A stretch of 58,470 nt of DNA. Origin: Gammaproteobacteria bacterium (GTDB lineage: Bacteria > Pseudomonadota > Gammaproteobacteria > JACCXJ01). A program made the position numbers and the translations under genes. Under the pieces are notes generated by a model. That model did not search any database. It saw only the letters and a program-made list of their open reading frames with translations, and was not told the origin of the DNA. Location: contig JBOIDL010000002.1 in NCBI GenBank assembly GCA_050740435.1, forward strand, positions 1 through 58,470, written 5' to 3'. Below, in pieces: positions 3,022 through 46,514 of this stretch; the first letter of the stretch is position 1, and the number at the start of each line of letters is the position of its first letter.

Positions 3022-3234
3022 TCGCACCGAATTCGTTCAGAATCATTCACGGTTTCACTTGCAATCGAGCTATTTCGCCGGGCAAGTTTGAGAGAGACGG
3101 TCAGTTCCTTAGAACGCCGTTTGATCAATCCGCCCGGCCTGACGGGCATACGGTGGAAATTTGTTCCCGTCTGGATCAATCCGCCTCAAATTAACTTCCA
3201 ACCTAATGATCGGCACTCTAGGAGGAACAAGAAA

Positions 3235-9200: not shown

Positions 9201-10170
9201 CACCTCGACCTTCGAGCTGCGGAACTCAGCCAACGCCTTGGTAGCGGCTACGGTCAGCTACAACGCCAATACGGCAACACTGACGCCGACCAGTGCATTA
9301 GCCGGCTCAGCAACCTATACCGCCACCGTCAAGGGCGGGACGGCGGATCCGCGGGTGAAGGATGTGGCCGGCAACCCGCTCGCTTCCAACGTCACCTGGC
9401 CCTTCACCACCGCGGCGGTGCTTACGACACCGCCCATGGCGCCGGTCGGGCTTACGGCGACGCCATCGGCGAGCGGCATCACGCTCCGCTGGACCGCGAA
9501 CACCGAGGGGGACCTTGCGGGCTATCACGCCTACCGCAGCGCCGGTGGGGCCGGTTCCTTCACTCGATTGAACGGCACTCTCCTGACCGCATTGGCTAAC
9601 CCCTCCTATGAGGATACCCTTGCCCCCAACGGGACCAGCGACTATCGGGTGACCGCGGTCGATAGCTCGGGCAATGAGTCAGCGCCTTCTGCTACGACGA
9701 GTGCATCCATGACCAAGTCTAATCGGATCCTGAACCCGGGTTTTGAGCTCGATGCCAACAGCGACACCCGCCCGGACAGCTGGAACACGAATGCGGCGGT
9801 TACGCGCAGCAGTGAACTCGTGCGAAGCGGTGGCTTTGCTATGAAGCATTCGGCGGCCACCAATGTGGGCTATACGCTTACTCAAGTGGTGACGGGCCTA
9901 GCCGCGGGTACGACGTACAACTTCGCAGGCTGGGCCAACATACCGACTACCGCCGATGCGTTCACCTTAACGATTCGCGTGCGTTGGCGTAGTCTCCTCA
10001 ACACGATACTTAGGACGGACAACGTCAAGGTGTACAACGCATCCACGAACGGCTGGAATAAGGCCTTAGTGAGCTTGGTGTCACCTATCGGGACCACTAA
10101 CGCACAGGTGCAGATGGTGGTGACCAGCTTGAACGCAAGCATCTACGTCGATGACTTCGCCTTGCGTTAA
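3235..10170 (+). CDS. giant secreted or membrane-anchored multidomain protein: signal anchor, 8+7 WD40 blades, deacetylase-like core, 3 x (Big_5 Ig + DUF4082), FN3, CBM4_9-like
   Basis: The ORF track gives 3088-10170. I trimmed it to the ATG at 3235, which is preceded by GGAGGA (3221-3226). MTRNRIVRLISLTGTVFVFTVVLIYVLALV is a hydrophobic N-terminus. Fifteen repeats of the form xAFSPDG....G.D..i.lWD fall in two blocks (about 3391-4360 and 4597-5440). The core carries a TGDDHG motif. Three repeats have DTTPPTV...FSE....T (Big_5/SbsA-type Ig), each followed by VELGVKFR...GIRFYK...TGTH.G.LW...ASGWQ...NTVYVASYHAPNG...NYWVDVVF (DUF4082). An FN3 follows (LRWTANTEGDLAGYHAYRS...VTAVDSSGNES). The C-terminus is NPGFELD...IYVDDFALR. 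Confidence 0.85.
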   Translation: MTRNRIVRLISLTGTVFVFTVVLIYVLALVSEVNVASANPNTTLPVSSTSANHDRFAFSPDGNSLASATDDGQIVLLSLLSGKQRLIGPGPLGSVVADLAFSPDGKTLACVLEDTITLWDMPSGQVRGILSGASNGVVTDLLFSPDGESVAGVADGKQILIWDVKSRSQRWILSSGDAVSRIAFARNATILASSGEDERIRLWDVTSGQELVTLTNRTAVTGFAFSPVGMTLASVDREANVSVWDLEFGNDRQILTGQRAPINGLAFSPDGSILATGGIDARVKLLDVTSGEERLSLLSRGDADFHGLVFSPDGRTLAGVSDGNRILLWEVASGNLRQRFVGHKDIIAEIAFNPNRQVLASVSNDGQAIVWDLAGGVKRLAHQIVGFGSDPLAFQTTDFSSKTLNTVNSSSAADLAPVIDPELPNQSSASQAGAVADLDLRGTRKRARARNWKGIRALAVSPDGTRVGTAGEDSAVRLWDSAGRELFALQGHHGAGVTGITFTADGEQLVSVGRDTEVSILNVATGDESKILLGHEHPIRTIAASPDGKFLASAGEETRIMVWDVATGKLSRILSGHTDFVNGLAFSPDGERLASGGADGRVLLWDVATGKLFKTLLGHAGEVNAVAYSRNGRLLASASEDFQVLMWDAVTGKQVRALRGHQAAVRTIAFSPDGRDLVSSGEDTRILVWDIAVGNLRKILPRNTRFINALVFHPAGSLIVGDEDAQITEWAMEGGRKVRISRPKLRPRAGRSTRTSSPLSALTPAGGGTDTNHIATRSIISAAQSIVGGLLDLLVPAAAAQLPDPNQGPGGPILVITSGSSTFGKFYAEILRNEGLNAFAVADIATINSATLASYDVVILAPVVLSLAQVGMFTDWVSAGGNLIAMRPDPQLSGLLGISAAGATSANAYLLVDTSQSPGSGIVGQTIQFHGTADRYTLNGASSLATLYADATTATANPAVTLRSVGANGGQAAAFTYDLATSIVYTRQGNPAWAAQERDGFTPIRSDDKFFGNATGDPKPDWVDLNKVAIPQADEQQRLLANLILHMNLDRKPLPRFWYFPRGEKAVVIMTGDDHGNGGTEGRFNQFISSSPAGCSVADWECVRGTSYVFPNTPTLTNAEAAAFNAAGFEVGLHVNTSCADFTPASLEDFYTQQIADWVANYSSIPVPITQRHHCIAWSDWVTGANVQFNHGIRLDTSYYFWPPSWALNRPGLFTGSGMPMRFAELNGTLVDVYNATTQMTDESGQQYPFTVNTLLDRALGPEGYYGAFTVNAHTDVPQIPEADAVVASALARSVPVVSSRQMLAWLDGRNNSSFGAFSWNGNTLSFSVTRDSAANGLQALVPRVVSGAVLTGITRNGSSIAFTTEIIKGVSYAVVSALSGTYAASFAPDTTPPTVVSHSPSAGATGVSQAALVTATFSEDLNPATIGTSTFELRGPGSTLVTATVTYNGATRTATLDPSSNLLASTTYTATVKGGPTGVKDAGGLAMVSDFVWTFTTEATPCSSSCNGWSSSTTPTNPSASDPNAVELGVKFRSNLDGSITGVRFYKGGGNTGTHIGKLWTAAGTQLATATFINETASGWQQVTFASPVAITANTVYVASYHAPNGGYAFDSNYFASSGFQNGPLYFLRDGESGGNGVYVYGAGGFPTNTFQASNYWVDVVFTTSSGGPDTTPPTVITKSPTDNAAGVSPTTAVTATFSEPLNPATVNTSTFELRTSTNALVPATVSYNANTATLTPSSTLAGSATYTATVKGGAADPRVKDVAGNALAANVTWSFTTAAPVVCPCSGWNSSATPTNPSFSDPNSIEVGVKFRVDVNGFISGIRFYKGDLNTGTHSGTLWTSAGLQLATATFTNETASGWQQVNFSSPVAVTANTVYVASYHAPNGNYAADSSYFASTGVDNGPVHLLSDGVSGGNGVFVYSASSAFPTSSFQATNYWVDVVFTTSAGSDTTPPTVTATTPLNGATGVNVGTTVTATFSEPMAPATVNTSTFELRNSANALVAATVSYNANTATLTPTSALAGSATYTATVKGGTADPRVKDVAGNPLASNVTWPFTTAAVLTTPPMAPVGLTATPSASGITLRWTANTEGDLAGYHAYRSAGGAGSFTRLNGTLLTALANPSYEDTLAPNGTSDYRVTAVDSSGNESAPSATTSASMTKSNRILNPGFELDANSDTRPDSWNTNAAVTRSSELVRSGGFAMKHSAATNVGYTLTQVVTGLAAGTTYNFAGWANIPTTADAFTLTIRVRWRSLLNTILRTDNVKVYNASTNGWNKALVSLVSPIGTTNAQVQMVVTSLNASIYVDDFALR

Positions 10171-10283
10171 CCGGGGTGGCCGACGGAGAAGACGGCTATG
10201 CATGGACAGCGCATGTGGTAGGACTGCAAGCGCTTATGGAAAAACAACAACGCCTAAGACCGGCGATAGGATTGGAGAACGAA

Positions 10284-13200
10284 ATGGAGAACCGAATGCC
10301 CCGTAGATTTACCCACCTTGCAATGCTGTTCTGCGCCTCCCTGCTGAGTACCTATGGACCACAGGTAGCAGCGAGTTGTGCAGCCCCGGCAAACGCGATC
10401 GAGGCCGAAAACTGCCAGCTTGGCAACCTGTCGAGCGAGTGGGACATCGGCGGTGTCGGTGATCCGAGCCTCCAGGGTTTTGCTACTGAGATCAGTGTCA
10501 ATCGGGGCGCGACCGTGTTCTTCAAGATCGATGCGAATGCGACCGGCGCTTACCGTCTCGACATCTACCGCATGGGCTACTACGGTGGGAGGGGAGCTCG
10601 CAAGGTCGCTACCGTGCCGGATTCGGTTACTTTGACGCAAAACCAACCGAACTGTTTCACGAATGCGACCACAGGACTCATCGATTGCGGCAATTGGGCG
10701 GTCTCCGCTTCATGGGCCGTGCCGGCTAACGCCACGTCCGGGATCTACTTTGCGAGGGCGGTGCGTACGAGCACCGGGGGCGCCAGCCACATCGTCTTTA
10801 TCGTGCGCGACGATGCGAGCACCTCGGATGTGCTGTTCCAAACCGCGGATACGACCTGGCAGGCATATAACAATTACGGGGGTAATAGCCTCTATACCGG
10901 ATCGCCGGCCGGGCGCGCTTACAAGGTCAGCTACAATCGGCCGTTCAACACCCGCACGGTCGATAACGGCCAGGATTGGGTATTCAACGCCGAATACCCG
11001 ATGGTCCGGTGGCTGGAGGCCAATGGTTACGACGTCAGCTACTCTACCGGAGTCGACAGCGATCGCCGGGGCGCGTTGATACGCAACCATAAGCTCTTCC
11101 TGTCGGTCGGTCACGACGAATACTGGTCTAATGGACAGCTCGCAAGCGTTGAAGCGGCTCGAAACGCCGGCGTGGACTTAGGTTTTTTCAGCGGCAACGA
11201 GGTTTTTTGGAAGACCCGCTGGGAAAACAGCATCGATGGTTCTGGGACGCCGTATCGCACGCTCGTGTGTTACAAGGAGACGCACGCCAACGCCAAGATC
11301 GATCCGTTGCCCAACGTCTGGACCGGCACCTGGCGCGACCCGCGTTTCAGCCCTCCCGCGGACGGCGGCCGTCCGGAAAATGCCCTGACCGGCACGCTTT
11401 TCACGGTAAACGCCGGCGCCACGACCTCGATTCGGGTGCCGGCGGAAGACGGCAAGATGCGCTTCTGGCGCAACACCAGCATCGCAAACCTCGCGGCAGG
11501 AGCCACGGCCACCTTACCCTTTGGAACCTTGGGCTACGAATGGGACGAAGATATTGACAACGGATTCCGGCCGGCCGGCCTATTCCACATGTCGACCGCT
11601 GTGGTACCGAATGCGCCGGTGCTGTTGGACTTCGGGTCTACCTTCGGATCGGGGACGGCGACGCATCATCTGACGCTTTACCGGCACAATAGCGGCGCCC
11701 TGGTGTTCGGATCCGGTACTGTCCAGTGGTCCTGGGGGTTGGATAGTAATCACGATAACGGTAGCGCTGCAGCGGATGTACGCATGCGGCAGGCGACCGT
11801 GAATCTATTTGCGGACATGGGAGTTCAGCCGGCCACACTGCAGTCAGGCTTGGTTCCCGCGACCGCATCGACCGATACGACTGCTCCCGGCTCCACGATC
11901 TCCTCGCCAACCAACGGCTCGAACGTACCGCAGGGAAGTCCGGTGTCCATCAGCGGAACGGCAGCGGACAGCGGCGGCGGTGTCGTGGGGGGTGTCGAGG
12001 TCTCGGTCGACGGCGGAACCACGTGGTTTGCAGCCACTGGCCGCGCCAACTGGAGCTTTAGCTGGCTCCCCAGTGCATCGGGAAATGTGACGATTCGGAG
12101 CCGTGCGGTGGACGACAGCGGGAATCTCGGAACGCCGAGTGCCGGTGTTAGCGTCACGGTTGGTTCCGGACAGCCGCCGGGTAACTGCACAGGGAGTAGC
12201 GTTTGGCCTGCCACAGCAGTGCCGGCTAATCCTACGGATCCTGATACGACCCCGGTTGAGCTGGGCGTGAAGTTCAGGTCGGACGTCAATGGCTTTGTTT
12301 GTGGTATCCGGTTTTACAAGAGCAGCGCGAATACGGGCACACACGTCGGTAAGCTGTGGAGTAGCAGCGGAACCTTGCTTGGCACCGCGACCTTTGCGGG
12401 CGAGACCGCGTCGGGCTGGCAGCAAGCGGACTTCGGCACGCCGGTGGCGGTTACGGGCAATACCGTTTACGTAGCTTCCTACCATGCGCCGAATGGGCGA
12501 TATGCGGCGGATACTGGCTTCTTCGCCGCCGGCGGTGTGGACAATGCGCCGCTGCATGCATTGCAGGACGGCGTGAGCGGAGGTAATGGGGTGTATGTCT
12601 ATGGAACCGGCAGTTTTCCTTCCAGTACGTTCCAATCGACCAACTACTGGGTGGATGTGGTCTTTACGACCGCCGCGGCGCCGGACACGACGCCGCCGAC
12701 AGTGACCTCGACGACACCGGCGAGTGGTGCGACCGGCGTGAGTCCGGGGACCACGGTGACAGCGGTCTTTAGCGAGGCGATGGATGCGACCACGGTCAAC
12801 CCCTCGACCGTAGAGTTGCGGGACGCGGCCAACGGGTTAGTGACGGCGACGGTAACGTACAACGCAGCGACGCGGACGGCGACGTTGACACCAAGCAGTG
12901 TCTTGGCCAACGGGGCGACCTACACGGCGACCGTCAAAGGCGGAGCGACGGATCCCCGGGTGAAGGATGTCGCCGCGAACGCACTCGCTGCTAACCAAAC
13001 CTGGTCGTTTGCTATAGCGCCCGCTGACACGACGCCACCGACGGTGACCTCGACGACACCGGCGAGTGGTGCGACGGGCGTGAGTCCGGGGACCACGGTG
13101 ACAGCGGTCTTTAGCGAGGCGATGGATGCGACCACGGTCAACCCCTCGACCGTAGAGTTGCGGGACGCGGCCAACGGGTTAGTGACGGCGACGGTAACGT

Positions 13201-14660
13201 ACAACGCAGCGACGCGGACGGCGACGTTGACACCAAGCAGTGTCTTGGCCAACGGGGCGACCTACACGGCGACCGTCAAAGGCGGAGCGGCGGATCCCCG
13301 GGTGAAGGATGTCGCCGGTAACGCGCTCGTCGCCAACCACACGTGGTCGTTTACTACCACGACCGGCGCCACCTGTACTGGCAACACCATCTTTGCTACA
13401 TCGGCGGTGCCGGCGATTGCGGCGGATGCGGACACTTCGGCGGTGGAGGTTGGCGTGAAGTTCCGGTCGGATGCCGATGGCGTTATATGCGGCATCCGCT
13501 TCTACAAGGGCAGCACGAACACCGGCACGCATGTGGGTAAGCTGTGGAGCAACGCCGGGACGTTGCTGGCGCAGGCGACCTTTACGGCCGAGACCGCCTC
13601 GGGCTGGCAGCAGGTGAATTTTGCAAGCCCGGTAGCGGTGACGGTGAACACGGTGTATGTGGCGTCCTACCATGCGCCGAACGGACGGTATTCGCTCAAT
13701 GAGCCGTTCTTTACCGCCGGGGTTGACAACGCTCCATTGCACGCGCTGCAAGACGGAGCAAATGGTGGAAACGGCGTATATTTGTATGGGGCCGGCGGTT
13801 TCCCCGTCAACACCTTCAATTCCAGCAATTACTGGGTGGACGTGGTATTCATTCCGGGGACTGCCCCGACACTCGCGTCGATCGCGGTGACGCCCGCTAA
13901 TCCGACGATCCAAACGTCGGCAACGCAGCAGTTCATAGCCACCGGGACCTACTCAAACAATAGTACGCAGGACATCACCAGTCAGGTAACCTGGGCTTCC
14001 TCGAACACGGCAGTGGCCACCATCAATACCGCCGGATTGGCAACGGCGGGCACGGGCGCTGGCACTACGACTATCTCGGCGACCTTGGGCACCGTCTCGG
14101 GGAGCACTACGCTGACCGTGCAGACCGCTCCCCCGATCACAAGTACCGGCTTCTTGGCCCCGAGCGCCAACGCAGCGGTTACCAGCAGTGCCGGCGACAA
14201 CAACGGGTTCCAGACCACCCCGAATAACGCCTACATCGCGGATAACCAGTTTGCTGTGGATACTAATAGTGGCACGAACACCAACACGTCATGTACCAAC
14301 GCGGGCAAGGACAAGCACAACTACTTCAACTACAACTTCAATGTGCCGGGCGGGGCATCGATCAGCGGTATTGAGGTCCGCCTGGACGCGAGCGTCGATA
14401 GCACTGCCAACTCGCCTCGGATGTGTGTGCAACTCTCCTCGGATGGCGGCACAACGTGGACCACGGCCTTGAGTACGACAACCCTGACTACGACGACCGC
14501 TGCATATATCTTGGGTGGTGCGACCAATACTTGGGGGCGAACCTGGACTGCGGGTGATTTTTCCAACGCTAATTTCAGGGTTCGCGTCATCGACGTGGCT
14601 TCCTCTACAGTCCGCGACTTTTCGTTGGATAGAGTAGCGGTTCAAGTGACCTATCAGTAG
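10284..14660 (+). CDS. large secreted protein: N,N-dimethylformamidase-beta-like domain, Ig-like, DUF4082, 2 x Big_5, DUF4082, Big_2, unknown C-terminal domain
   Basis: The ORF track gives 10176-14660. I trimmed it to the ATG at 10284, which has GGAGA 5 nt upstream (an alternative ATG is at 10296). Signal peptide: MPRRFTHLAMLFCASLLSTYGPQVAAS. DMFase-beta-family motifs as I recall them: IEAENC.LGN..SEWDI, LDIYRMGYYGGRGAR, TTWQAYNNYGGNSLY, GHDEYWS, FFSGNEVFWKTRWE. There are two DUF4082 copies and a Big_2 (ASIAVTPANPTIQTSATQQFIATGTYSNNSTQDITSQVTWASSN). Confidence 0.85.
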   Translation: MENRMPRRFTHLAMLFCASLLSTYGPQVAASCAAPANAIEAENCQLGNLSSEWDIGGVGDPSLQGFATEISVNRGATVFFKIDANATGAYRLDIYRMGYYGGRGARKVATVPDSVTLTQNQPNCFTNATTGLIDCGNWAVSASWAVPANATSGIYFARAVRTSTGGASHIVFIVRDDASTSDVLFQTADTTWQAYNNYGGNSLYTGSPAGRAYKVSYNRPFNTRTVDNGQDWVFNAEYPMVRWLEANGYDVSYSTGVDSDRRGALIRNHKLFLSVGHDEYWSNGQLASVEAARNAGVDLGFFSGNEVFWKTRWENSIDGSGTPYRTLVCYKETHANAKIDPLPNVWTGTWRDPRFSPPADGGRPENALTGTLFTVNAGATTSIRVPAEDGKMRFWRNTSIANLAAGATATLPFGTLGYEWDEDIDNGFRPAGLFHMSTAVVPNAPVLLDFGSTFGSGTATHHLTLYRHNSGALVFGSGTVQWSWGLDSNHDNGSAAADVRMRQATVNLFADMGVQPATLQSGLVPATASTDTTAPGSTISSPTNGSNVPQGSPVSISGTAADSGGGVVGGVEVSVDGGTTWFAATGRANWSFSWLPSASGNVTIRSRAVDDSGNLGTPSAGVSVTVGSGQPPGNCTGSSVWPATAVPANPTDPDTTPVELGVKFRSDVNGFVCGIRFYKSSANTGTHVGKLWSSSGTLLGTATFAGETASGWQQADFGTPVAVTGNTVYVASYHAPNGRYAADTGFFAAGGVDNAPLHALQDGVSGGNGVYVYGTGSFPSSTFQSTNYWVDVVFTTAAAPDTTPPTVTSTTPASGATGVSPGTTVTAVFSEAMDATTVNPSTVELRDAANGLVTATVTYNAATRTATLTPSSVLANGATYTATVKGGATDPRVKDVAANALAANQTWSFAIAPADTTPPTVTSTTPASGATGVSPGTTVTAVFSEAMDATTVNPSTVELRDAANGLVTATVTYNAATRTATLTPSSVLANGATYTATVKGGAADPRVKDVAGNALVANHTWSFTTTTGATCTGNTIFATSAVPAIAADADTSAVEVGVKFRSDADGVICGIRFYKGSTNTGTHVGKLWSNAGTLLAQATFTAETASGWQQVNFASPVAVTVNTVYVASYHAPNGRYSLNEPFFTAGVDNAPLHALQDGANGGNGVYLYGAGGFPVNTFNSSNYWVDVVFIPGTAPTLASIAVTPANPTIQTSATQQFIATGTYSNNSTQDITSQVTWASSNTAVATINTAGLATAGTGAGTTTISATLGTVSGSTTLTVQTAPPITSTGFLAPSANAAVTSSAGDNNGFQTTPNNAYIADNQFAVDTNSGTNTNTSCTNAGKDKHNYFNYNFNVPGGASISGIEVRLDASVDSTANSPRMCVQLSSDGGTTWTTALSTTTLTTTTAAYILGGATNTWGRTWTAGDFSNANFRVRVIDVASSTVRDFSLDRVAVQVTYQ
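12684..13367 (+). repeat. tandem duplication of a 342-bp (114-aa) Big_5 Ig-domain unit inside the 10284-14660 gene
   Basis: Unit 1 starts at 12684 (gacacgacgcc...) and unit 2 at 13026. By eye there are only 4 mismatches in the first ~290 bp of each unit, and the last ~50 bp diverge more. The minus-strand shadow ORFs 12644-12910 and 12920-13252 have identical N-terminal peptides. Confidence 0.9.
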
Positions 14661-14784: not shown

Positions 14785-17718
14785 ATGCGGAGCGATCTTA
14801 GTTTAGAGTGCCACCCAGAACGAAAAGTGCCTACCGATCATCGGGCGCATGTTCGATCGCAGAATAGTCTGCGCCGGGTAAAGCCGCTTCGTTCGATTCT
14901 TGTTGTGCTCCTCGTCGGGTGCGTCGCTTTCACGCGACCTGCGATGAGCCAATCAACGGGGCTTTTGGGGGCCTATTCCTTTGACGAGGGCGTTGGTTCA
15001 ATCGCTGGCGACGCATCCGGTAATTCACACACCGGTACCGTCACGGGGGCGACCTGGACCACAGTGGGAAAGTATGGCGGTACACTTAATTTCGACGGGA
15101 CAAACGACCTTGTTACCGTCGCTGATTCCGCCGCTTTGGATCTTACAACCGGGATGACACTATCGGCTTGGGTGCATCCTACGGCCTTGAGTACCTGGCG
15201 GACGGTGCTACTCAAGGAACGCAGTGGAGGGCTCGTCTATGCACTTTACGCGAGTGACCAAGCCTCTCACCCGAACACCTACGTCAATATAGGTGGTTCT
15301 GATTTGGGGTCGACTGGTCCGACCGCGCTGACGCTCAACGGGTGGAGTAATCTCGCGGCTACCTACGACGGGTCAGTCCTACGCGTTTATATCAATGGCG
15401 TGCAGGTCAGCAGTCGGCCTGTGGCGGGTAGCCTTCTTTCCTCCACGGGAGCGCTTCGCATTGGCGGTAACAGTGTTTGGGGGGAATATTTCCAAGGCCT
15501 TATCGACGAAGTACGAATTTATGACCGCGCCTTGGCAGCGACCGAAATCCAAGCGGATATGGTCAGGCCAATAGGCTTGGCGCCGCCCCCACCGCCTCCG
15601 CCGGGCGGATCTACCGTCGGTCAGTGGTCGGATCCTGTTGAATTAGGGATGGTTGCGGTCAATATGGTGCAGCTCCATACGGGGAAGATTCTAATGTACC
15701 GCGGCGAAAATAGCGGTGGCACATCGGCCACGTTGTGGGACCCGCTTACGGGAGCGTTTAAAGCTGCCCCGGCTCCTTATAATGTCTTCTGTTCGGGCCA
15801 TTCGTCACTTGCCGATGGCCGTATCTTAGTAGTCGGCGGTCACGATAATGCCGGAGGAATTCTTGGCGCGAACGAATCGGCGATTTTCGATCCTATGACC
15901 GAGGCTTGGACATCGACGCCATCCATGGCTTACAGGCGGTGGTACCCAAGTGCCACGACCCTACCGGATGGTCGTGTGTTAGCAACCTCCGGTGGCACGA
16001 CGTGTTTTGATTGTTACGCAGACGTTCCCGAAATTTATAACCCACAAACGAATTTGTGGACGCAGCTTACCGGGGCCAAGCTAGGGTTCCCGTATTACCC
16101 GTTTATTTTCGTATTGCCGGATGGACGCATTTTAAATGCGGGGGCTGGCGAGCTGCCCGCACCAACGCGCATTTTGGACCTGGTAAGTCAACGGTGGACA
16201 ACGGTAGATGATGCGCTTATCGACGGGGGCAGCGCCGTGATGTACCGGCCAGGGAAAGTGCTCAAAGCGGGAACCGCGGCAACGACAGATGTATCCAACG
16301 ACGCGACTGCGGCTACGACGCACGTGCTCGACATGACTGCGCAATCGCCAGCATGGCGGCAGACGGCGTCCATGGCCTTCCCACGGGCGTACCACACACT
16401 GAGTGTCCTGCCTGACGGGAATGTCTTGGTAACTGGCGGGGGTGTGACCACGGAAGGCAAGGATGTGTCGGCCGCTGTGTATGAAGCGGAGCTTTGGTCG
16501 CCCACCACCGAAACATGGCAGACGATGGCGGCGATGCAGAGCCCGAGACTGTATCATTCGACAGCCCTCCTTCTTCCGGATGGTCGCGTAGTTGTCGCGG
16601 GTAGCGGTGACAGTTATGGTGGGCCGAACCAAACGACGGCCGAATTTTATTCGCCCCCATACCTTTTTAAGGGGGACCGGCCCGTAATTGCATCGGCCCC
16701 TTCACAGGTCGCTTATGCCGACGGATTTACAGTAAGTCTCGTCGATACCTCGACGATTAAGTCGGTGGCACTGGTGCGGCCCGGGGCCGTTACGCACCAA
16801 TTCGACGAGAATCAGCGCTATCTGAGCCTCGGGTTTCAGCAGAACGCTAACACCTTGAGCGTGGACGCGCCCGGAAACGGAAACCTTGCTCCGCCCGGCT
16901 ACTATATGCTTTTCGTGCTGAACGAGGCTGGCGTGCCGTCGGTAGCGTCTTGGATCCGGATGCTGCCGGCAACGGCGGATACAACGCCTCCCGAGCAGCC
17001 TTCTGGCCTTACCGGTACATCGTCCAATTCCGGTGTGTTCCTCAATTGGACCGCCAATACGGAAGCAGATCTTGCGGGCTACGATGTGTATCGGGGACCG
17101 AACGGCAGTGGATCGTTTACGCGTTTAAATAATGCTCTTGTTACCAACGCACAGTTCGACGATACGCTCGCGCCAAATGGGATCCTTGACTACACTGTGA
17201 CAGCAGTGGATAGGGACGGGAACGAATCCCCACAGGCAACACCGGCGGTCACTGTTACGATGGCAAAGACGAATCGCGTTTTGAATCCTGGATTTGAGCT
17301 GGATGCGAATAATAACACCCAGCCTGATAACTGGAGCGCAAGCACCCGGTTCACGCACAGTAACGTGTTGGCACGCAGCGGTACATACAGTGGCCGGCAT
17401 CTCGCCACGAACAATCCGAACTACACGATTACCCAGGTCGTGACTGGTTTGACCGCAACGACGTACACCTTTGCAGGCTGGGTAAACATACCCGCCACAG
17501 CGGATGCGTTCACTTTGACAGTTCGCGTGCGGTGGCGTAACGCCTCCAATGCAATACTTAGGAGGGACAACGTCAAGGTTTATACGGCATCCACGTCCAA
17601 GTGGGATAAAGCGCTACGGAATATGGTAGCGCCCAGCGGGACATCCAACGCCCAGGTGCAGATGGTGGTCAGCAGCCTCAACGCCACCATCTACGTCGAT
17701 GATTTCGCCCTGCGGTGA
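14785..17718 (+). CDS. secreted LamG + galactose-oxidase/glyoxal-oxidase-type copper radical oxidase (kelch propeller + DUF1929) + FN3 + CBM4_9-like
   Basis: ATG at 14785 with GAGAGG at 14774-14779. N-terminal hydrophobic signal: [18 protein letters not shown]. LamG/Laminin_G_3: GNSHTGTV...[10 protein letters not shown]...[27 protein letters not shown]. Poly-Pro linker. Oxidase motifs: FCSGHS (Cys336, tgt 15790-15792), RRWYPSA (Tyr387, 15943-15945), PRLYHST (Tyr590-His591, 16552-16557) and [12 protein letters not shown] (His671, 16795-16797). The C-terminal 150 aa are close to the C-terminus of the 3235-10170 protein. Confidence 0.85.
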
Positions 17719-17771
17719 TCTATGCGCGTAAGATCAGGAATACAAGTACCTGGCCCGTCAGCTCTGTACCA

Positions 17772-18257
17772 ATGATCGCACACGACGTTCAGCTCGGCGA
17801 AGGTGTCGTGATACATCATCCCGATCTTGTGAACCTGTACGGCTGCCGAATCGGACCGGGGACGAAGATCGGCAGTTTTGTCGAGATACAAAAAGGCGCG
17901 TCTGTCGGCGCTAGATGCAAGATATCTAGTCACACCTTCATTTGCGCGGGCGTAGACATCGAAGACGGGGTATTTATCGGCCATGGTGTCATGTTTACCA
18001 ATGATATCTATCCACGGGCCGTTAATCCCGGGGGTGGCCTACTAACGGACGCCGATTGGGAAGTGATTCGTACACGAATAAAGACACATGCTGCGATAGG
18101 TAGCAATGCCACTATTCTGGCTGGGGTTACCATAGGAGAAGGATCTCTCGTGGGCGCCGGCGCAGTTGTCACCCGCGATGTGCCAGATCATGCCATCGTA
18201 GCCGGTGTACCCGCGAAGGTCATTGGCGATACTCGAAAAACCAAGCAGCTCGCATGA
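17772..18257 (+). CDS. hexapeptide-repeat (left-handed beta-helix) sugar N-acetyltransferase, WbpD/WlbB-like
   Basis: The ORF track gives 17715-18257; I trimmed it to the ATG at 17772. Repeated [LIV]-G-x-x-x-x hexads are present ([48 protein letters not shown]), and the C-terminus is [10 protein letters not shown]. It is adjacent to the Gfo/Idh/MocA and DegT genes. Confidence 0.8.
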
Positions 18258-18377
18258 GTTTGTCCATGTTTTCGCGTTGCCGTTTAACGAAATATGTAAT
18301 CTCGAGGTCCGGCCAGTACGACACGGAATACCTCGTGTCGCGTCTTTACTGGTAGGTAATCTTGATCCCTTAGTTTT

Positions 18378-18526
18378 TAGGGAAGCTCTGCAAAAGTTAC
18401 TGCGCGGCCCATCTGCTTTGTCGCGTGCTCGCTCGTCGCTCGCCTATCTACCTGATATGTCTCGCGACTCGCTCCGCGGCTTCGCGCATCTGGGCTTGCT
18501 CGCAAGACTTTTGCAGAGCTTCCTTA
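18378..18526 (+). mobile_element. 149-bp MITE-like repeat element, copy 1
   Basis: It is bounded by 19-nt terminal inverted repeats, TAGGGAAGCTCTGCAAAAG (18378-18396) and CTTTTGCAGAGCTTCCTTA (18508-18526), with 1 mismatch between the arms. A second copy at 57909-58057 in the opposite orientation differs at 6 of 149 positions by hand alignment. Confidence 0.85.
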
Positions 18527-18847
18527 GCTAGTTTGTGCTAACCGAGCGGCACGAATCATTCGTCGCTGTTCCACGACACTCAATTCGTTTTCGGATCGGT
18601 TAGCAGAGCTACAAACCTTGCGCCCCGCCTTTGCGCGAGCTTCTACCGGTCTCTCGACCCGCGGTATATTTCGTCGGCGACTTAGAATAAGCAGCAGCTT
18701 CCGAGGATCTTTAGGCGCGAAGAAGAACGGCATGATTAGTGCCCCTGCTGCTAGAACTCTAGAACTCATGATCGTGGGAATGCCCAGTGAAGGAGTGAGG
18801 ATACACAAGATCTGGTAACGATTTTTGTTTATTTAAAGGAATTGCTC

Positions 18848-19918
18848 ATGATTAAGATCGGATTCATAGGGTATGGGTATTGGGGTCCAAACCTAGTTCG
18901 CAACTTTATGGAAGTATCGGATGCCAAAGTTGTTGCCGTAAGTGATCTCGATGAGCGAAGACTAGAGTTGGTGAAAGCGCGATATCCAACTGTTGAGATC
19001 ACCTCTGACTATCGAGATCTGTTATCGAATCCTGAAATCGATGCGATTGTTATTGCGACACCGGTATCCAGTCATTTTGAGTTGGCCTCACGGGCGCTGA
19101 CCGCTGGAAAACACGTGTTTATTGAAAAGCCGCTTACGGAAACCGCTGAACAGGGGGCCAGCCTTGTCGCAGAGGCCAAGAAGTGCAATCTGCTGCTGCA
19201 TGTCGACCATACATTTGTTTACACAAGCGCTGTCCGAAAGATTCACCAACTTGTCACGAATGGTGAACTAGGAGACCTGTATTATTATGATTCGACCAGG
19301 ATTAACCTCGGCTTGTTTCGATCCGATGTTGATGTGATCTGGGACCTGGCAGTTCATGACCTTTCAATCATTGATTACATATTTCCTTTGAAACCAATTG
19401 CAGTCTCGGCGACTGGGGTAAACCACGTTTCGGGAACGCTCGCGAATACCGCTTACTTGACCTTGTTTTTTGACGGCAATGCGATCGCTCATATACACGT
19501 GAATTGGTTGGCACCGGTGAAAGTGCGTCGAACACTTATCGGTGGAAGCCAAAAGATGATCGTTTACGATGACCTGGAACCCAGTGAGAAGATAAAAGTG
19601 TACGACAAAGGGATTACTGTCAACGGCAGCAAGGAAGCGCTCTATAACACGATGGTAGGGTATCGGACGGGCGATATGTGGGCGCCTCAGCTAGAGATCA
19701 CTGAGGCACTCCGAGTCGAAGGGCAACACTTCGTTCGCTGTATCAGTCGAGGCGAAACCTCGATCAGCGATGGGAACGCGGGGGTTAGGGTCGTGCGCGT
19801 CTTGGAAGCGGCAACCCGTTCCATGAATGAACGCGGGCGACCGGTGGAAATAGGTGGAATCCCCGGGGTTTTGCGGCGGCGGACCGTGTCAAGGAGTTTC
19901 AGACCCCAGGCTGCATAA
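18848..19918 (+). CDS. Gfo/Idh/MocA-family NAD-dependent sugar oxidoreductase, WbpB/WlbA-like
   Basis: ATG at 18848 with AAGGA 7 nt upstream. The N-terminal Rossmann motif is IKIGFIGYGYWGPNLVRNF, with EKPL further on. Length and context match the 3-dehydrogenases that precede DegT aminotransferases. Confidence 0.85.
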   Translation: MIKIGFIGYGYWGPNLVRNFMEVSDAKVVAVSDLDERRLELVKARYPTVEITSDYRDLLSNPEIDAIVIATPVSSHFELASRALTAGKHVFIEKPLTETAEQGASLVAEAKKCNLLLHVDHTFVYTSAVRKIHQLVTNGELGDLYYYDSTRINLGLFRSDVDVIWDLAVHDLSIIDYIFPLKPIAVSATGVNHVSGTLANTAYLTLFFDGNAIAHIHVNWLAPVKVRRTLIGGSQKMIVYDDLEPSEKIKVYDKGITVNGSKEALYNTMVGYRTGDMWAPQLEITEALRVEGQHFVRCISRGETSISDGNAGVRVVRVLEAATRSMNERGRPVEIGGIPGVLRRRTVSRSFRPQAA

Positions 19919-20035
19919 AATTACTGTCGAAGGAGCGGAAGTTACGGTTGTGTTGATCTCCTCCGTGGTCGCTGGATGGGTTTACATTCCCGGTGCCGCG
20001 AAATACGAAATGAGTTCTAAAGAAGGGTTAAACGC

Positions 20036-21136
20036 GTGATTCCATTTATTGATCTTAAGGCGCAGTACGAGAGTATTCAGGAGGAGGTCCTGGCCGCCGT
20101 CGGGGCATCGTTGGCAAGCACTGAGTATACGCTCGGCCGGGAGGTGGCGGCCTTCGAAGAGGAGTATGCAGCCTATTGCGGGGGTAAGTACGGTATCGGA
20201 GTCAATTCCGGAACCAGCGCATTGCATTTGGCGCTCCTAGCTGCGGGAGTCGGGCCGGGAACCGAGGTCGTTACCGTTTCCTGTACCTTCGTGGCCACGG
20301 TGGCCGCCATCGACTATGCCGGCGGCCGCCCGGTGTTCGTGGACGTCGATTCGCAAACACTGAATATGGATCCTGGCCAGGTGGAAGCGGCAATTACCGA
20401 ACGCACGAAGGCTATCCTGCCGGTACATCTGCATGGGCAGCCGGCCGACTTAGATCCGATTATAGAGATTGCCCGACGCCATAAGCTCGTGGTTATCGAG
20501 GATGCTGCTCAGGCCCACGCTGCAGAATACAAAGGCCATCGGATCGGCTCGATCGGCGATCTCGGGTGCTTTAGTTTTTATCCGGGTAAGAATCTAGGCG
20601 CGTATGGAGAGGCCGGAATCGTCGTAACGAATAATAGGCAGTATGCAGCTACCATTAGGATGTTGCGAGATTGGGGACAGGAGCGCAAATATCACCATGT
20701 GATAAAGGGCTATAACTATCGGATGGAAGGTGTCCAAGGGGCCATCTTGCGAGTAAAGCTGCGTCATCTAGAGGCCTGGACCGATGCTCGCCGTCAACAC
20801 GCTACTTTTTATAACGAAGCCCTGCAAGGCACGGATCTTCATACGCCTATCGAGGCGCCCTATGCTAAGCATGTGTATCACGTGTATGCGGTGCGCACAC
20901 CCAAACGCGACCGCGTGCAGCAGTTTCTTCAGGCAAAGAATATATCGACAGGTATCCATTACCCGATTCCTGTGCATCTGCAGAAAGCCTATATGGAGCT
21001 TGGTTACAAGGCTGGCGATTTACCGGTAACGGAGACAGCTGCGGACGAACTATTGTCCCTGCCGATGTTTCCGGAGTTACGGAAGGGCCAAATCGAAGCG
21101 GTCTGCGCCGCTGTCGCGCATTCCGTGGGCAGATGA
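20036..21136 (+). CDS. DegT/DnrJ/EryC1/StrS-family PLP-dependent sugar aminotransferase, WbpE/WlbC-like
   Basis: IPFIDLKAQYESIQEE...GVNSGTSALHLAL...HLHGQPADLD...FSFYPGKNLGAYGEAG (PLP-lysine region)...NYRMEGVQGAIL. GTG start at 20036. Confidence 0.9.
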   Translation: MIPFIDLKAQYESIQEEVLAAVGASLASTEYTLGREVAAFEEEYAAYCGGKYGIGVNSGTSALHLALLAAGVGPGTEVVTVSCTFVATVAAIDYAGGRPVFVDVDSQTLNMDPGQVEAAITERTKAILPVHLHGQPADLDPIIEIARRHKLVVIEDAAQAHAAEYKGHRIGSIGDLGCFSFYPGKNLGAYGEAGIVVTNNRQYAATIRMLRDWGQERKYHHVIKGYNYRMEGVQGAILRVKLRHLEAWTDARRQHATFYNEALQGTDLHTPIEAPYAKHVYHVYAVRTPKRDRVQQFLQAKNISTGIHYPIPVHLQKAYMELGYKAGDLPVTETAADELLSLPMFPELRKGQIEAVCAAVAHSVGR

Positions 21137-21306
21137 GCATGATAGCGGCGAACCCATTGCGTGCTGGAAACCCGCATTCATCAGTGCCGCTGAAAATGTA
21201 CGTGGTATTTGCCTTGAAATATTTAGAGAGAATTGGCGCGCGCGGCAAGCCCTTGAGTAATCGACAATAGCCTGATGCTATCGCTACCCGTTTAGTGTGT
21301 ATAAGC

Positions 21307-21930
21307 ATGGCTAAAGCACCGATACTAGTTCTGGGTTTTGGAGGGAATGCTATTGATGCCATAGATACAATCGAAAGTAGCTATGAGATCATTGGGTTTA
21401 TTGATGATGACTCAGAACGGCAGCAACCTGTTTTTGGTGATATACCAATATATTCGCGCCAAATCTTGGAGAAACATAAAGACACCAAAGTAATAACGCT
21501 GATCGGTTCGGATGCTACCATCCGGGCCCGCAGGAACATTATTAACAGCTTTAATGTGCCTCGTTCGCGCTTCGCTACCATCATCCATCCGGCCGCCATC
21601 GTTTCGAAACGTACAACCCTCGGTCATGATGTGATCGTTTTTGCGGGCGCGGTCATAGCCGCAAATGTAATAATCGGTAATCACATTTTTGTGCTACCAA
21701 ACTCAGTGATCCACCACGACGTATGTATTGGTGACTTCACCCTAATAGGAGCTAACGTCACCATCGCGGGTCATGTTTCGGTTGGTGAGAGCTGCTATCT
21801 TGGCAGCGCGAGCTCAATCCGAAACAACATAAGCATAGGGGAGGGCAGCATTATTGGAATGGCTGCCAATGTGGTCCATTCAGTTGCTCCCGGTTCAACG
21901 ATGATCGGTAATCCGGCGAGAGCTAAATGA
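21307..21930 (+). CDS. NeuD/PglD-family sugar acetyltransferase (Rossmann-like N-domain + hexapeptide beta-helix)
   Basis: I trimmed it to the ATG at 21307. The N-terminus is ILVLGFGGNAIDAIDTIE...IIGFIDDD. The C-terminal half consists of hexapeptide repeats (IGNHIFVLPNSVIHHDVCIGDFTLIGANVTIAGHVSVGESCYLGSASSI). Confidence 0.75.
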   Translation: MAKAPILVLGFGGNAIDAIDTIESSYEIIGFIDDDSERQQPVFGDIPIYSRQILEKHKDTKVITLIGSDATIRARRNIINSFNVPRSRFATIIHPAAIVSKRTTLGHDVIVFAGAVIAANVIIGNHIFVLPNSVIHHDVCIGDFTLIGANVTIAGHVSVGESCYLGSASSIRNNISIGEGSIIGMAANVVHSVAPGSTMIGNPARAK

Positions 21931-22026
21931 GAACATATGGTTACCGCCTACTAGATGGTGTGACTGAGAATACGGCACTTAGTTGACCAAGGTCGCCAGA
22001 AGATACCGTTAACAAAGAGACTATTT

Positions 22027-23430
22027 ATGTCCGCAGAGGAACTAGAAAGATATAGGTACAGCTGGCCGTACTTCAACCCGGCTGAGGATGCGCGCTGGAA
22101 CAAAACCTGTAATGGGGCTTATGTGCGCCACCTTCCTGAGGATAAGGAAGATCTCGCGCTGGACAGCCGTTGGCCGGGCTTCTTTCCGTCAGCAGTTTGT
22201 TTTGTTAGCACTGCGGATGGGGACAATACCACCCTTGAGAAGGTCGTCGGGGCGTCTATTGTTAACCGCTTTCCCTATGTAATGGCTCTTAGTTTCTGCA
22301 CGCAAGCGTTGTCGGAACGTCATTATGCGCGTACCCGTTTTACGCAAATACTGGAAAAAGGTGGAGTAGTTGCTGTTCAGTATTTCGAACCGGGTTTGCA
22401 TATAGATGCGGCGATGGCCTCCATCGACCAGGTACCTGATGGCGAGGCGGAGAAGCGCATTCGTCATTCGAGGCTACCTGTTCGTAAGGCCATAACGAAC
22501 GATTCGCCGGTTTTTGAGTCTGCATACATGGTCTATGAGGCACGTCTGGTCAGAGCCGGTAGGGATTTTACTGGAGCCTCAATTTACGAAAGACCTTATA
22601 CTGATTTTGGCAGCCATCGCATCTACTATTTCGAGATCGAAGCCATACAGCTGCGAGAAGATATCTCGAGAGGCGATGCCCATATTTACTGGCAAGCCCT
22701 ACCAACCTGGTCGCCCACGAATGGACTTCAGGACATTAATGTACACGAGTCGCGGCCTCAGATAAAAGGGAAGTACCAAAAGGGTTATTCGCCCAAATAT
22801 CGTTTCCCGTCAGAGAATACAGTCACATTTGAATACGACCGGATCGAAAACGGTATGGCGGTAAAGTTTCTGCCGCCGTTACCGGAAGACCAAGTAGAAG
22901 TGGATAATGACCGTGCCCGCTGGCCCTGTTTTTTTCCTTCCTCCGCAGGGATGATCGCTACTTTGGACTCAAGTGGTGTGCCTAACTTGATGCCCTGTGG
23001 TTCGACCACGATGCTTGTTCGCCAACCGCTTTGCATAGGTATTTGTGTGTCCTATGCAGAAATCAATATCCGTTATGCCCCCCGTGGCTCGCTGCGTGCT
23101 CTGAATGATTCGAAACGGTTTGGCTGCGGAGTGCCTTTCATCAACGATACGATTGTCGACGCAATGAGGTACGCGGGGAACATATCCATTGCTCAGGACA
23201 AAGACAAGATACAGCATGCTGGTCTTCAAGTTGAAGCGAATGAGTGGTCGCCTGTGTTTCCGGCCCTGCCAATTCACTTTTTCTGCGACGTGGTGAGAGT
23301 AATTCGCTTGGGAACGCACTTCCTGTATTTGGGAAAAGTAAGTGCTCTTAGAATCCGAGAGGACGTGAATATAGATAATCCCTTGCGGTGGTATCCTTAT
23401 CCTGATGTGATCAAGAGCACGTTAGTGTGA
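22027..23430 (+). CDS. hypothetical protein, probable tandem flavin-reductase-like (FMN-binding split-barrel) domains
   Basis: 467-aa ORF in an AT-richer stretch. It has two internally similar halves, each with RWP.FFPS....(ST)..D.....(LM) near its start and (G)(ST)H..Y...(V/I)......RED near its end. Those motifs resemble the Flavin_Reduct fold. No other motif was recognised. Confidence 0.5.
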   Translation: MSAEELERYRYSWPYFNPAEDARWNKTCNGAYVRHLPEDKEDLALDSRWPGFFPSAVCFVSTADGDNTTLEKVVGASIVNRFPYVMALSFCTQALSERHYARTRFTQILEKGGVVAVQYFEPGLHIDAAMASIDQVPDGEAEKRIRHSRLPVRKAITNDSPVFESAYMVYEARLVRAGRDFTGASIYERPYTDFGSHRIYYFEIEAIQLREDISRGDAHIYWQALPTWSPTNGLQDINVHESRPQIKGKYQKGYSPKYRFPSENTVTFEYDRIENGMAVKFLPPLPEDQVEVDNDRARWPCFFPSSAGMIATLDSSGVPNLMPCGSTTMLVRQPLCIGICVSYAEINIRYAPRGSLRALNDSKRFGCGVPFINDTIVDAMRYAGNISIAQDKDKIQHAGLQVEANEWSPVFPALPIHFFCDVVRVIRLGTHFLYLGKVSALRIREDVNIDNPLRWYPYPDVIKSTLV

Positions 23431-23569
23431 AGCTTAACAACTCAATAGCCTTGTGGACGAAAGGCGGATGACGTTTGTGAGAGCTCAAGAACTTCGTGAC
23501 AAGGGTGAAAGTACTGATCACCGCTCGAAACCTCGGAATCAACCGTTGGCAAAATGGTAGAAGAAGAAC

Positions 23570-24574
23570 ATGGAAATAGATGGAGCAAGCATTTTGGTTA
23601 CCGGCGGTTGCGGACTTATCGGTGCAACCACCATTGATCTCTTACTGCAGAAACATTCGCCAGCGCGCATCGTTATTCTTGATAACTTGGCTCGGGGCAC
23701 GATAGCCAACGTCGAGCGGGCATTGAAGGATCACCGCGTATCGCTGGTCCGCGGTGACATCCGTGACGTCGATCTGGTGCACAAAGTGACCCGAGGCGTG
23801 GACGCCGTCATACACATGGCTGCACTGCGAATTACCGCGTGCGCGGCGCAGCCGAGGGAGGCATTGGGTGTCATGTGCGATGGGAGCTTCAACGTGTTGG
23901 AAGCCGCGCATGCCGCGAAGGTAAAAAAGGTGGTGGCCGCCTCTTCAGCATCCGTTTACGGCCCAGCCGACAGTTTCCCAACGTGCGAGGACCATCACCC
24001 CTATAAAAACCGCACGTGGTACGGTGCGAGCAAGATCATGCTCGAGGGATTACTGCGGTCGTTCAACGATATGTATGGTCTACCGTATGTGGCGCTCCGC
24101 TACTTCAACGTATATGGCCCGCGTATGGACATTCACGGCAAGTACACCGAGGTACTGGTTCGATGGATGGAGCGAATCGCGTCGGGTCAGCCGCCGCTTG
24201 TTCTCGGCGACGGAAGAGCAACAATGGATTTTGTCTATATCGAGGATGTGGCTCGCTCTAATATCCTGGCCTTGCAATCTGACGTCACTGATGATGTGTT
24301 CAACGTCGCTAGCGGCACCGAGACCAGCCTAGACGGTTTGGCGGCGGTCCTGCTTAGAGTGATGGGGTCAGATCTCGAGGCTAAGTACGGCCCGGAACGT
24401 AATGTTAATCCTGTGTCGCGTCGCCTTGCCGATACGAACAAGGCGACGCGCCTGCTAGGCTTCAAGGCCCAGGTCGGTCTAGAGGAGGGTCTCCGTCGTC
24501 TTGTCGCATGGTGGCAGAACGAGCGCGTCCGAAGTAAGGGATATAGGCAGGAGTCAACTAGTAAGACGGCTTGA
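23570..24574 (+). CDS. NAD-dependent epimerase/dehydratase (extended SDR)
   Basis: ILVTGGCGLIGATTIDLLL (Rossmann G-x-x-G-x-x-G), a YGASK catalytic Y-x-x-x-K, and ALRYFNVYGPRM. Confidence 0.85.
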   Translation: MEIDGASILVTGGCGLIGATTIDLLLQKHSPARIVILDNLARGTIANVERALKDHRVSLVRGDIRDVDLVHKVTRGVDAVIHMAALRITACAAQPREALGVMCDGSFNVLEAAHAAKVKKVVAASSASVYGPADSFPTCEDHHPYKNRTWYGASKIMLEGLLRSFNDMYGLPYVALRYFNVYGPRMDIHGKYTEVLVRWMERIASGQPPLVLGDGRATMDFVYIEDVARSNILALQSDVTDDVFNVASGTETSLDGLAAVLLRVMGSDLEAKYGPERNVNPVSRRLADTNKATRLLGFKAQVGLEEGLRRLVAWWQNERVRSKGYRQESTSKTA

Positions 24575-24670
24575 TTTATTCCTGACGATGCAACGCTCTG
24601 GACTATACGGCGCTCGACGAGATTTCTAATTTTGTTGTCGCCAAGTATGGTGGCCAATCGGGATTGATAG

Positions 24671-33623: not shown

Positions 33624-33624
33624 T

Positions 33625-35000: not shown

Positions 35001-35013
35001 TTAGGCCGAAGTG

Positions 35014-46513: not shown

Positions 46514-46514
46514 G

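Follow-up and report, generated by a model that had tools for sequence, protein, structure and literature searches.

A probable multi-domain copper radical oxidase encoded in a Wzx/Wza/Wzc polysaccharide locus of a gammaproteobacterium

Described copper radical oxidases and the protein under study

Copper radical oxidases (CROs) are valued as biocatalysts, and in fungi and Streptomyces they have been linked to the morphogenesis of cell walls and glycans. In this study, we analysed a stretch of DNA of 58 470 nucleotides from a gammaproteobacterium (contig JBOIDL010000002.1 of assembly GCA_050740435.1; referred to as the window), in which a complete open reading frame (ORF) with an ATG start, located at 14785..17718 on the + strand, encodes a protein of 977 amino acids that is very probably a functional CRO. 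Copper binding, the Cys–Tyr cross-link and oxidase activity are predicted from its relationship to known members of the family. The catalytic machinery and the fusion of CROs to binding modules are both already known, and it is the pattern of module sharing between this protein (hereafter, the CRO) and other secreted proteins of the same locus that makes it worth experimental work.

Apart from an unreferenced structure from Pseudarthrobacter, the only biochemically studied bacterial CRO in the literature searched is GlxA of Streptomyces lividans/coelicolor (SLI_3188/SCO2837; Protein Data Bank (PDB) entry 4unm), which is active in vitro essentially on glycolaldehyde alone (PMC11611005). Together with CslA, GlxA forms an active cellulose synthase complex, in which the extracellular part of GlxA stimulates CslA (PMC11022532), providing a precedent for a CRO that works alongside a glycan synthase (PMC11022532; PMC11611005). 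A Trp–Tyr arrangement in the second shell of the active site is common to GlxA (W288) and the fungal AA5_1 aldehyde oxidases (W509-Y510 in FgrAldOx), and was proposed in a structural paper of 2026 to be the basis of their common aldehyde-oxidase behaviour (PMC13094651). In our literature searches, no paper was found on the enzyme of Pseudarthrobacter siccitolerans, on LamG with galactose oxidase, or on a CRO with exopolysaccharide; likewise, these searches yielded no characterized member of the clade to which the window CRO belongs, and no paper that deals with its bacterial CROs or reports a CRO from a Wzx/Wzy locus. A preliminary description of this DNA had called bacterial CROs in such a context poorly characterized, and no characterized one was indeed found in the literature.

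Active site and domain layout of the CRO

The CRO was compared with all PDB chains using phmmer. The best match was GlxA of S. lividans (4unm, E-value 8.7e-65), followed by Fusarium galactose oxidase (GO; 1gof, 1e-46), the bacterial galactose oxidase 9g43/9g8h (2.7e-44), AA5_2 oxidases of Colletotrichum and the Fusarium glyoxal oxidase 9n3u. The first shell and the cofactor cysteine are complete in the CRO (Cys336, Tyr387, Tyr590, His591 and His671), and the residues lie in the motifs FCSGH (335–339), RWYPS (385–389), LYHS (589–592) and the motif containing His671 (669–678). The active-site features are listed below, with conservation counted in 120 homologues of the CRO.

15790..15792, + strand: Cys336, the predicted thioether partner of Tyr387; FCSGH pairs with FCTGH of GlxA and FCPGI of GO (Cys228), and Cys is present in 116 of 120 homologues
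15940..15945, + strand: Trp386-Tyr387, the second-shell Trp followed by the cofactor/equatorial Tyr; Trp in 119 and Tyr in 116 of 120 homologues
16552..16557, + strand: Tyr590 (predicted axial ligand) and His591 (predicted copper ligand), each kept in 116 of 120
16795..16797, + strand: His671, the predicted copper ligand from the E-set domain, kept in 119 of 120
16003..16014, + strand: Cys407-x-x-Cys410, in a loop that aligns with the Trp290 loop of GO, kept in 93 and 94 of 120 (approximately 78%)

In the phmmer alignments, RWYPS paired with RWYPT of GlxA and RGYQS of GO (Tyr272), LYHS with NYHS of GlxA and VYHS of GO (Tyr495-His496), and VTHQ, which contains His671, with STHV of GlxA and ATHT of GO (His581). 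As judged from these alignments, the motif pairing with GlxA and GO is far beyond chance. The ORF and the motif residue numbers were exactly those of the preliminary description, and its assignment of Cys336, Tyr387, Tyr590-His591 and His671 to GO Cys228, Tyr272, Tyr495-His496 and His581 was reproduced; upon alignment with GO and GlxA, the listed residues paired one-to-one with the cofactor and the ligands. The CRO had also been credited with the full galactose-oxidase residue set, which holds for the first shell and the cofactor cysteine; the second shell is of the GlxA/AA5_1 type, and the sugar pocket of GO is not kept.

In this second shell, of the aldehyde-oxidase type found in GlxA and AA5_1, Trp386 stands immediately N-terminal to Tyr387. 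The stacking Trp290 of GO lies on a separate loop (GGSWSGG), and in the HMMER alignment this residue is replaced by Thr406 of the CRO, which adjoins Cys407-x-x-Cys410. Apart from Cys336, Cys407 and Cys410 are the sole cysteines of the catalytic region, and may form a disulfide that shapes the active-site rim. Arg330 of GO falls in a stretch with no HMMER alignment to the CRO.

For the fold of the protein, a full-length AlphaFold2 (AF2) model was built on an alignment of 70 sequences, and its reliability was read from the predicted local distance difference test (pLDDT), which exceeded 90 over residues 60–825. From the N- to the C-terminus, the layout comprises a Sec signal peptide, a LamG domain, a proline linker, a seven-bladed kelch propeller, a GO-like E-set domain, an FN3-like domain and a β-sandwich resembling carbohydrate-binding modules (CBMs) of families 4/9/16/22.

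14785..14949, + strand: signal peptide, residues 1–55, assigned by inspection; the cleavage site is predicted
14962..15564, + strand: LamG (Laminin_G_3), a concanavalin-like jelly-roll, residues ~60–260; Pfam match at 104–256 with an E-value of 1e-32, pLDDT >90
15583..15606, + strand: proline-rich linker PPPPPPPP, residues 267–274, at the LamG/propeller junction; pLDDT dips to 65
15616..16674, + strand: seven-bladed kelch β-propeller, the catalytic domain, residues ~278–630; Pfam Glyoxal_oxid_N and Kelch, AF2
16678..16962, + strand: GO-like E-set (DUF1929, PF09118), residues 632–726; Pfam E-value 9e-28, pLDDT >90
16987..17268, + strand: FN3-like β-sandwich, residues ~735–828; AF2 strands within 740–825, pLDDT 84–95
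17287..17715, + strand: CBM4/9/16/22-like jelly-roll, residues ~835–977, beginning with NPGFE and ending with IYVDDFALR; assigned at fold level

In the catalytic region, Pfam detected Glyoxal_oxid_N at residues 317–449 (E-value 3e-14) together with several Kelch families, and the AF2 propeller consists of 27 strands in seven blades with a pLDDT above 90. When the full-length model was compared with the PDB using Foldseek, the top 27 matches were all solved CROs (E-value approximately 1e-36), including GlxA, GO, the bacterial galactose oxidase 9g43, the alcohol oxidase 5c86 (TMt 0.84, root-mean-square deviation 2.6 Å) and the glyoxal oxidase 9n3u. Pfam, AF2 and Foldseek thus agree on the kelch-propeller and DUF1929 layout that had been described previously.

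The C-terminal 250 amino acids of the window sequence gave nothing above the Pfam threshold. For the FN3-like domain, sequence matches were weak (an RGI_lyase domain at an E-value of 0.004, and 5jip at 9e-6). Residues 830–977 had a pLDDT below 50 in the full-length model, in which the family alignment gave no coverage of the tail; the tail is poorly modelled by this alignment because close homologues have other tails, mostly Big_7-LamG. A separate search with the CBM-like tail yielded 30 homologues, one of which has a PF02018 (CBM_4_9) match, and a second AF2 model of this tail reached a pLDDT of 82.6. Foldseek matched this model to CBM22 (1h6x, E-value 1e-7), CBM16 and CBM61, with TM-scores of approximately 0.6, and also to a module that binds hyaluronan and to C-terminal domains of capsule-depolymerase tailspikes from phages (E-values of 1e-7 to 1e-6). 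A profile search of the PDB gave weak matches to CBM regions (E-values of 0.004–0.018). The fusion to an N-terminal LamG and a C-terminal FN3-CBM was therefore borne out, the former by Pfam and the latter at fold level in AF2 and Foldseek, and the CBM-like module is predicted to bind carbohydrate.

The N-terminus of the protein bears on its export. The sequence GAGAGG lies 6 nt 5′ of the ATG at 14785. A public gene call (P0001, 924 amino acids) begins at Met54, and would cut off the signal peptide. The elements of a signal peptide are found in residues 30–55, namely, the basic n-region RRVKPLR, a hydrophobic h-region and the c-region PAMS followed by Q, and AF2 places a helix at residues 36–48. 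The homologues carry Sec-type signal peptides with an AxA/Q end, immediately N-terminal to the conserved GLVAAY that opens LamG. The protein is most likely exported via Sec, with cleavage at the predicted site. A lipoprotein reading of LVGC (residues 43–46) was set aside, as homologues show the AxA/Q pattern of signal peptidase I at the aligned position, and the RR of RRVKPL is a poor match to the twin-arginine consensus of Tat export. A PEP-CTERM or other short C-terminal sorting tag is absent, the end of the protein being a folded domain. Scans for promoters and terminators around the CRO gene gave no signal above the shuffled background.

Among the solved relatives, GlxA is the best sequence match, sharing with the CRO the first shell, the cofactor cysteine and the sequence R-W-Y-P; it is likewise bacterial, extracytoplasmic and genetically tied to the production of an extracellular glycan. 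The two proteins are approximately 25% identical, and GlxA has a cap domain and cslA/cslZ partners. Furthermore, GlxA is a bare membrane-anchored enzyme, whereas the CRO has a predicted cleavable signal peptide and LamG, FN3 and CBM-like modules. Fusarium GO (AA5_2, 1gof) and the AA5_2 alcohol oxidases (5c86, 6ryv) have the same seven-bladed kelch propeller and E-set, GO Cys228, Tyr272, Tyr495, His496 and His581 are all matched, and the core of GO is also fused to a module of the carbohydrate-binding type. In contrast to the bacterial CRO, GO carries an N-terminal CBM32 (F5/8 type C) instead of LamG, RGYQS instead of RWYPS, and Trp290 in place of Thr406. The fungal AA5_1 glyoxal/aldehyde oxidases (FgrAldOx, 9n3u) share the Trp–Tyr pair and the first shell (Foldseek E-value 6.5e-29), but 9n3u is the most distant solved CRO by sequence (5.4e-23, with only residues 518–726 aligned) and has appended WSC modules. 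Finally, the bacterial galactose oxidase of P. siccitolerans (9g43/9g8h, released in 2025) was aligned over residues 268–725 with an E-value of 2.7e-44 (Foldseek E-value 2.6e-36), and is a weaker sequence match to the CRO than GlxA.

Relation of the CRO to the polysaccharide locus

The window represents a Wzx/Wzy-type polysaccharide locus, in which the genes from 2207 to 43096 are all co-directional. Its gene content, including Wzx, Wza, Wzc and glycosyltransferases, agrees with the exopolysaccharide setting of the preliminary description. The following features bear on the relation of the CRO to this locus.

3088-10170, + strand: secreted protein of 2360 amino acids with WD40, DUF4082 and Big_5, two genes upstream of the CRO
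9424..10170, + strand: C-terminal FN3 and CBM-like cassette of ORF 3088-10170, 64% identical to the CRO tail over 250 amino acids (E-value 7e-110)
10176..14660, + strand: secreted protein of 1494 amino acids with DMFA2_C, Big_7, two DUF4082, two Big_5 and Big_2, directly upstream of the CRO
17715..25855, + strand: genes directly downstream of the CRO, encoding a hexapeptide acetyltransferase, a GFO/IDH/MocA oxidoreductase, a DegT aminotransferase, a PglD-like acetyltransferase, a flavin-reductase-domain protein, an epimerase/dehydratase and a second DegT
49615-51600 and 51961-53961, − strand: two paralogous secreted PKD-PKD-LamG proteins (Pfam)

Modules of the LamG, FN3-CBM or Big_5-DUF4082 type are carried by these four further secreted proteins of the locus. 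The sequence IYVDDFALR ends both the CRO and ORF 3088-10170, and the LamG of the CRO is 52% identical to that of both PKD-LamG proteins. The two giant proteins upstream of the CRO (ORFs 10176-14660 and 3088-10170) have in common a 273-amino-acid Big_5/DUF4082 block that is 65% identical between them. In one relative (P0050/L030), of which the catalytic core is 71% identical to that of the window CRO, the CRO itself is fused to a Big_5-DUF4082 block with 64–65% identity to the blocks of the two giants. The genes that follow the CRO in this relative encode, in order, a hexapeptide protein, GFO/IDH/MocA, DegT, a hexapeptide protein, an epimerase and DegT, with 43–75% protein identity to their window counterparts, and then Wzz and a kinase; the order is the same in both, save for the flavin-reductase-domain gene, which has no counterpart in L030. 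The homologue nearest to the CBM-like tail (76%) forms the end of a gene that is cut by a contig edge and abuts genes for Wzz, a kinase, Bac_transf and Wzx. These findings bind the CRO to the Wzx/Wza/Wzc locus more firmly than its position alone would, and the link is real for this lineage, with the gene order kept in one relative. A single set of modules thus serves five secreted proteins of the locus. Most simply, these proteins would have a ligand or a location in common, plausibly the polysaccharide or the surface layer that the locus builds.

We propose that the CRO is a Sec-exported multi-domain oxidase in which, following the chemistry of the family, a mononuclear copper would be held by Tyr387, Tyr590, His591 and His671. 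Tyr387 would be cross-linked to Cys336 to give the Cys–Tyr radical cofactor, with Trp386 stacked above it. The substrate, either a primary alcohol or the hydrated form (gem-diol) of an aldehyde, would lose two electrons to O2, yielding an aldehyde or carboxylate and H2O2. Because the cap domain of GlxA is absent, the catalytic site should be open and accessible to polymers. The LamG domain and the FN3-CBM-like cassette would anchor the enzyme on a glycan, which in this organism is most likely the exopolysaccharide or cell-surface matrix that the Wzx/Wza/Wzc locus around the gene produces, and the outcome would be an oxidative modification of the matrix glycan, with new carbonyl or carboxyl groups, and the local release of H2O2. 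Taken as a whole, an exported CRO that is tethered to and modifies the matrix glycan of the locus is the best explanation available, and we give it an even chance of being correct; the narrower claim, that the enzyme acts physiologically on the polysaccharide or matrix of its own locus, falls just short of that. Locus position and shared modules together give a testable hypothesis, namely, that bacterial CROs tailor matrix glycans oxidatively.

Several observations weigh against this proposal. Among the neighbourhoods of 10 homologues, polysaccharide genes were clear in two (L025 and L030), partly present in a third (L033, Solirubrobacter soli) and absent from the remaining seven; the family as a whole is therefore not tied to exopolysaccharide loci, and the association with such a locus that had been noted previously is real in this lineage without being a property of the family. 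The Trp–Tyr second shell is of the aldehyde ('glyoxal') oxidase/GlxA type, for which the known in vitro substrates are small aldehydes, and Gln406 and Phe464 of the GO sugar pocket are replaced by Asp502 and Lys559 at positions that are variable in the family (the loop alignments are approximate). Many of the sugars predicted for the locus would have no free hydroxyl at C6, including rhamnose (RmlABCD) and 2,3-diacetamido-uronic acids (WbpB/E/D-like), with AsnB-like amidation. In addition, an apparently non-coding gap of 584 nt (18258-18841), which contains a terminator-like hairpin at 18319-18340, separates the hexapeptide acetyltransferase gene from the GFO/IDH/MocA gene.

With regard to the substrate, the preliminary description had suggested the oxidation of polysaccharide hydroxyls, such as the conversion of Gal C6 to an aldehyde. 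This suggestion is no better supported than the oxidation of an aldehyde or another alcohol, because the CRO has Thr, Asp and Lys at the positions aligned with GO Trp290, Gln406 and Phe464, and a galactose-6-oxidase specificity was set aside as unsupported. From the aligned residues, an alcohol and a hydrated aldehyde are both possible substrates, and nothing points to galactose.

The second shell and the homologue contexts also lend themselves to a different explanation, in which the CRO is a general extracellular oxidase that acts on small aldehydes or alcohols (of the glycolaldehyde or glyoxal type, for detoxification or H2O2 supply) or on exogenous glycans. The cell's own polysaccharide would then not be acted upon; the lectin-like modules would only retain the enzyme at the surface of the cell or on polymers in the environment, and its position in the locus would reflect the co-expression of surface proteins or module shuffling and no relationship to the substrate. 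We regard this explanation, the main alternative, as possible but somewhat doubtful. It is favoured by the resemblance of the second shell to those of GlxA and the fungal aldehyde oxidases, which prefer small aldehydes, and by the seven homologues in unrelated contexts, across which the catalytic core remains 68–78% identical while the flanking modules vary freely, as would fit one chemistry used in many settings. Against it stand the synteny with sugar-modification genes that is kept in L030, the targeting modules that the CRO has in common specifically with further secreted proteins encoded nearby in the locus, and the nearest homologue of the CBM-like tail, which again lies beside an exopolysaccharide cluster. 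If the enzyme merely oxidizes small aldehydes, it would be a routine addition to AA5-like diversity.

The kinship with GlxA, its closest solved relative by sequence, also allows a structural or accessory role, in which the CRO would be a partner of the polysaccharide assembly or export machinery, its redox chemistry being secondary or regulatory. The stimulation of CslA in the active GlxA–CslA complex (PMC11022532) and the presence of the CRO gene within a polysaccharide locus are consistent with such a role, which we nevertheless consider improbable. The CRO is not an orthologue of GlxA: it scored 279.2 bits against the cut-off of 800 bits (NCBIfam NF052501), it has no cslA partner, and the cap domain of GlxA (inserted domain 2, chain residues ~109–233, approximately 120 residues) has no counterpart, the gap being bridged by residues 354–361 of the CRO (approximately six residues). 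The window contains no CslA-type processive GT2 or CslZ partner; its GT2 genes encode proteins of 312–343 amino acids and occur with GT4 genes and the Wzx/Wza/Wzc system, that is, a Wzx/Wzy-type rather than a synthase-dependent pathway. Moreover, the hydrophobic N-terminus with its AxA-like site resembles a cleaved signal peptide and not a membrane anchor.

Inactive derivatives of this fold do exist, as loss of the Cys, Tyr or His is seen in four of the 120 homologues, but a catalytically dead lectin or adhesin is highly improbable here, given that the CRO keeps all first-shell residues, the cofactor cysteine and the stacking Trp in a strongly conserved core.

Returning to the proposal of an oxidase that modifies the matrix glycan, an extended form of it would hold that the WD40-DUF4082 giant, the DMFA2_C-DUF4082 giant, the LamG-CRO and the two PKD-LamG proteins make up a matrix-remodelling toolkit, which exchanges targeting cassettes and is dedicated to the polysaccharide of the locus. 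The CRO would then introduce carbonyls or carboxyls into the secreted polymer, for instance for cross-linking to the amino sugars made by the locus. This extension is unlikely as it stands; if true, a Wzx/Wzy pathway would include a radical copper enzyme that oxidatively tailors the bacterial exopolysaccharide after its export, a case of which no description was found.

Homologues of the CRO and further features of the locus

At an E-value of 1e-30 or lower, the catalytic domain was found in 8198 representatives of 50%-identity clusters; the clade is very large and the gene is not a rarity. The domain occupies an N-terminal, middle or C-terminal position in host proteins of 365 to more than 5000 amino acids. 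Across the family, a conserved oxidase core is combined with tethering modules that vary, and the enzyme is not specific to exopolysaccharide. For biocatalysis, the clade offers CROs of the GlxA type with a predicted open site. Among the homologues P0152, P0207, P0229 and P0280, some proteins of 1668–5486 amino acids match the catalytic-domain query in 12–28 separate stretches. Relatives are named 'LamG-like jellyroll fold domain-containing protein' by NCBI. In a scan of a genome collection, the best match to the CRO (68% identity) was in a metagenome-assembled genome (MAG). The whole contig is present in a cave-metagenome run, and sequences related to it were found in metagenomes from caves, soil and sediment.

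The locus starts with a NusG-like gene (2207), followed by the two giant secreted proteins and then the CRO. The second of these giants (ORF 10176-14660) contains, at approximately 12.7–13.4 kb, two nearly identical tandem Big_5 repeats of approximately 110–115 amino acids (PADTTPPTVTSTTPASGATGVSPGTTVTAVFSEAMDATTVNPSTVELRDAANG...). Downstream of the CRO, the hexapeptide acetyltransferase and GFO/IDH/MocA genes have counterparts in L030 that are only 9 nt apart. The flavin-reductase-domain gene that is absent from L030 (22027-23430) encodes a protein of 467 amino acids in which the flavin-reductase-like domain covers only residues 303–456 and the N-terminal 300 amino acids have no domain assignment; the gene lies amid amino-sugar genes.

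Beyond the second DegT gene, the locus continues with Bac_transf, RmlACDB, a Wzx-like flippase, four GT2, two AsnB-like amidotransferases and two GT4, and it is closed by Wza, a Wzc-like gene and a ParA-like kinase. The two AsnB-type glutamine amidotransferases (35011-36888 and 37909-39852) are paralogous and lie amid glycosyltransferases; together with the WbpB/E/D-like trio, this pair suggests that amidated diacetamido-uronic acid residues occur in the polymer. At 32589-33623, an NAD-dependent epimerase/dehydratase appears to be split by a frameshift into an N-terminal Rossmann ORF (32589-33023) and a C-terminal ORF in another frame (33144-33623). The latter covers only positions 162–227 of the Pfam Epimerase profile, and the following ORF 33508-34107 also looks fragmentary; the split gene is either a pseudogene or an assembly error. 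Three ORFs of 213, 453 and 475 amino acids at 44514-47942 gave no Pfam match at an E-value of 0.001 or lower, and from their position could encode a Wzy-type polymerase or other membrane proteins.

Parts of the locus resemble exopolysaccharide loci of Methylobacter. The Wzx-like gene and the two GT4 genes (30874-32493, 39849-40967 and 48126-49376) encode proteins with 69–79% identity to products of Methylobacter exopolysaccharide-locus genes, and the Methylobacter loci L015, L016 and L018 (M. tundripaludum SV96 and MAGs) encode a PKD-LamG protein with 46–48% identity. No CRO was found in these three loci. Part of the locus is thus common to Methylococcaceae, either by descent or by transfer.

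The G+C content of the window is a mosaic. In bins of 2 kb, it was 56–62% at 4–18 kb (the two giants and the CRO), 51–52% at 18–24 kb (sugar-nucleotide genes) and 48–49% at 54–58 kb (Wza, Wzc and the kinase).

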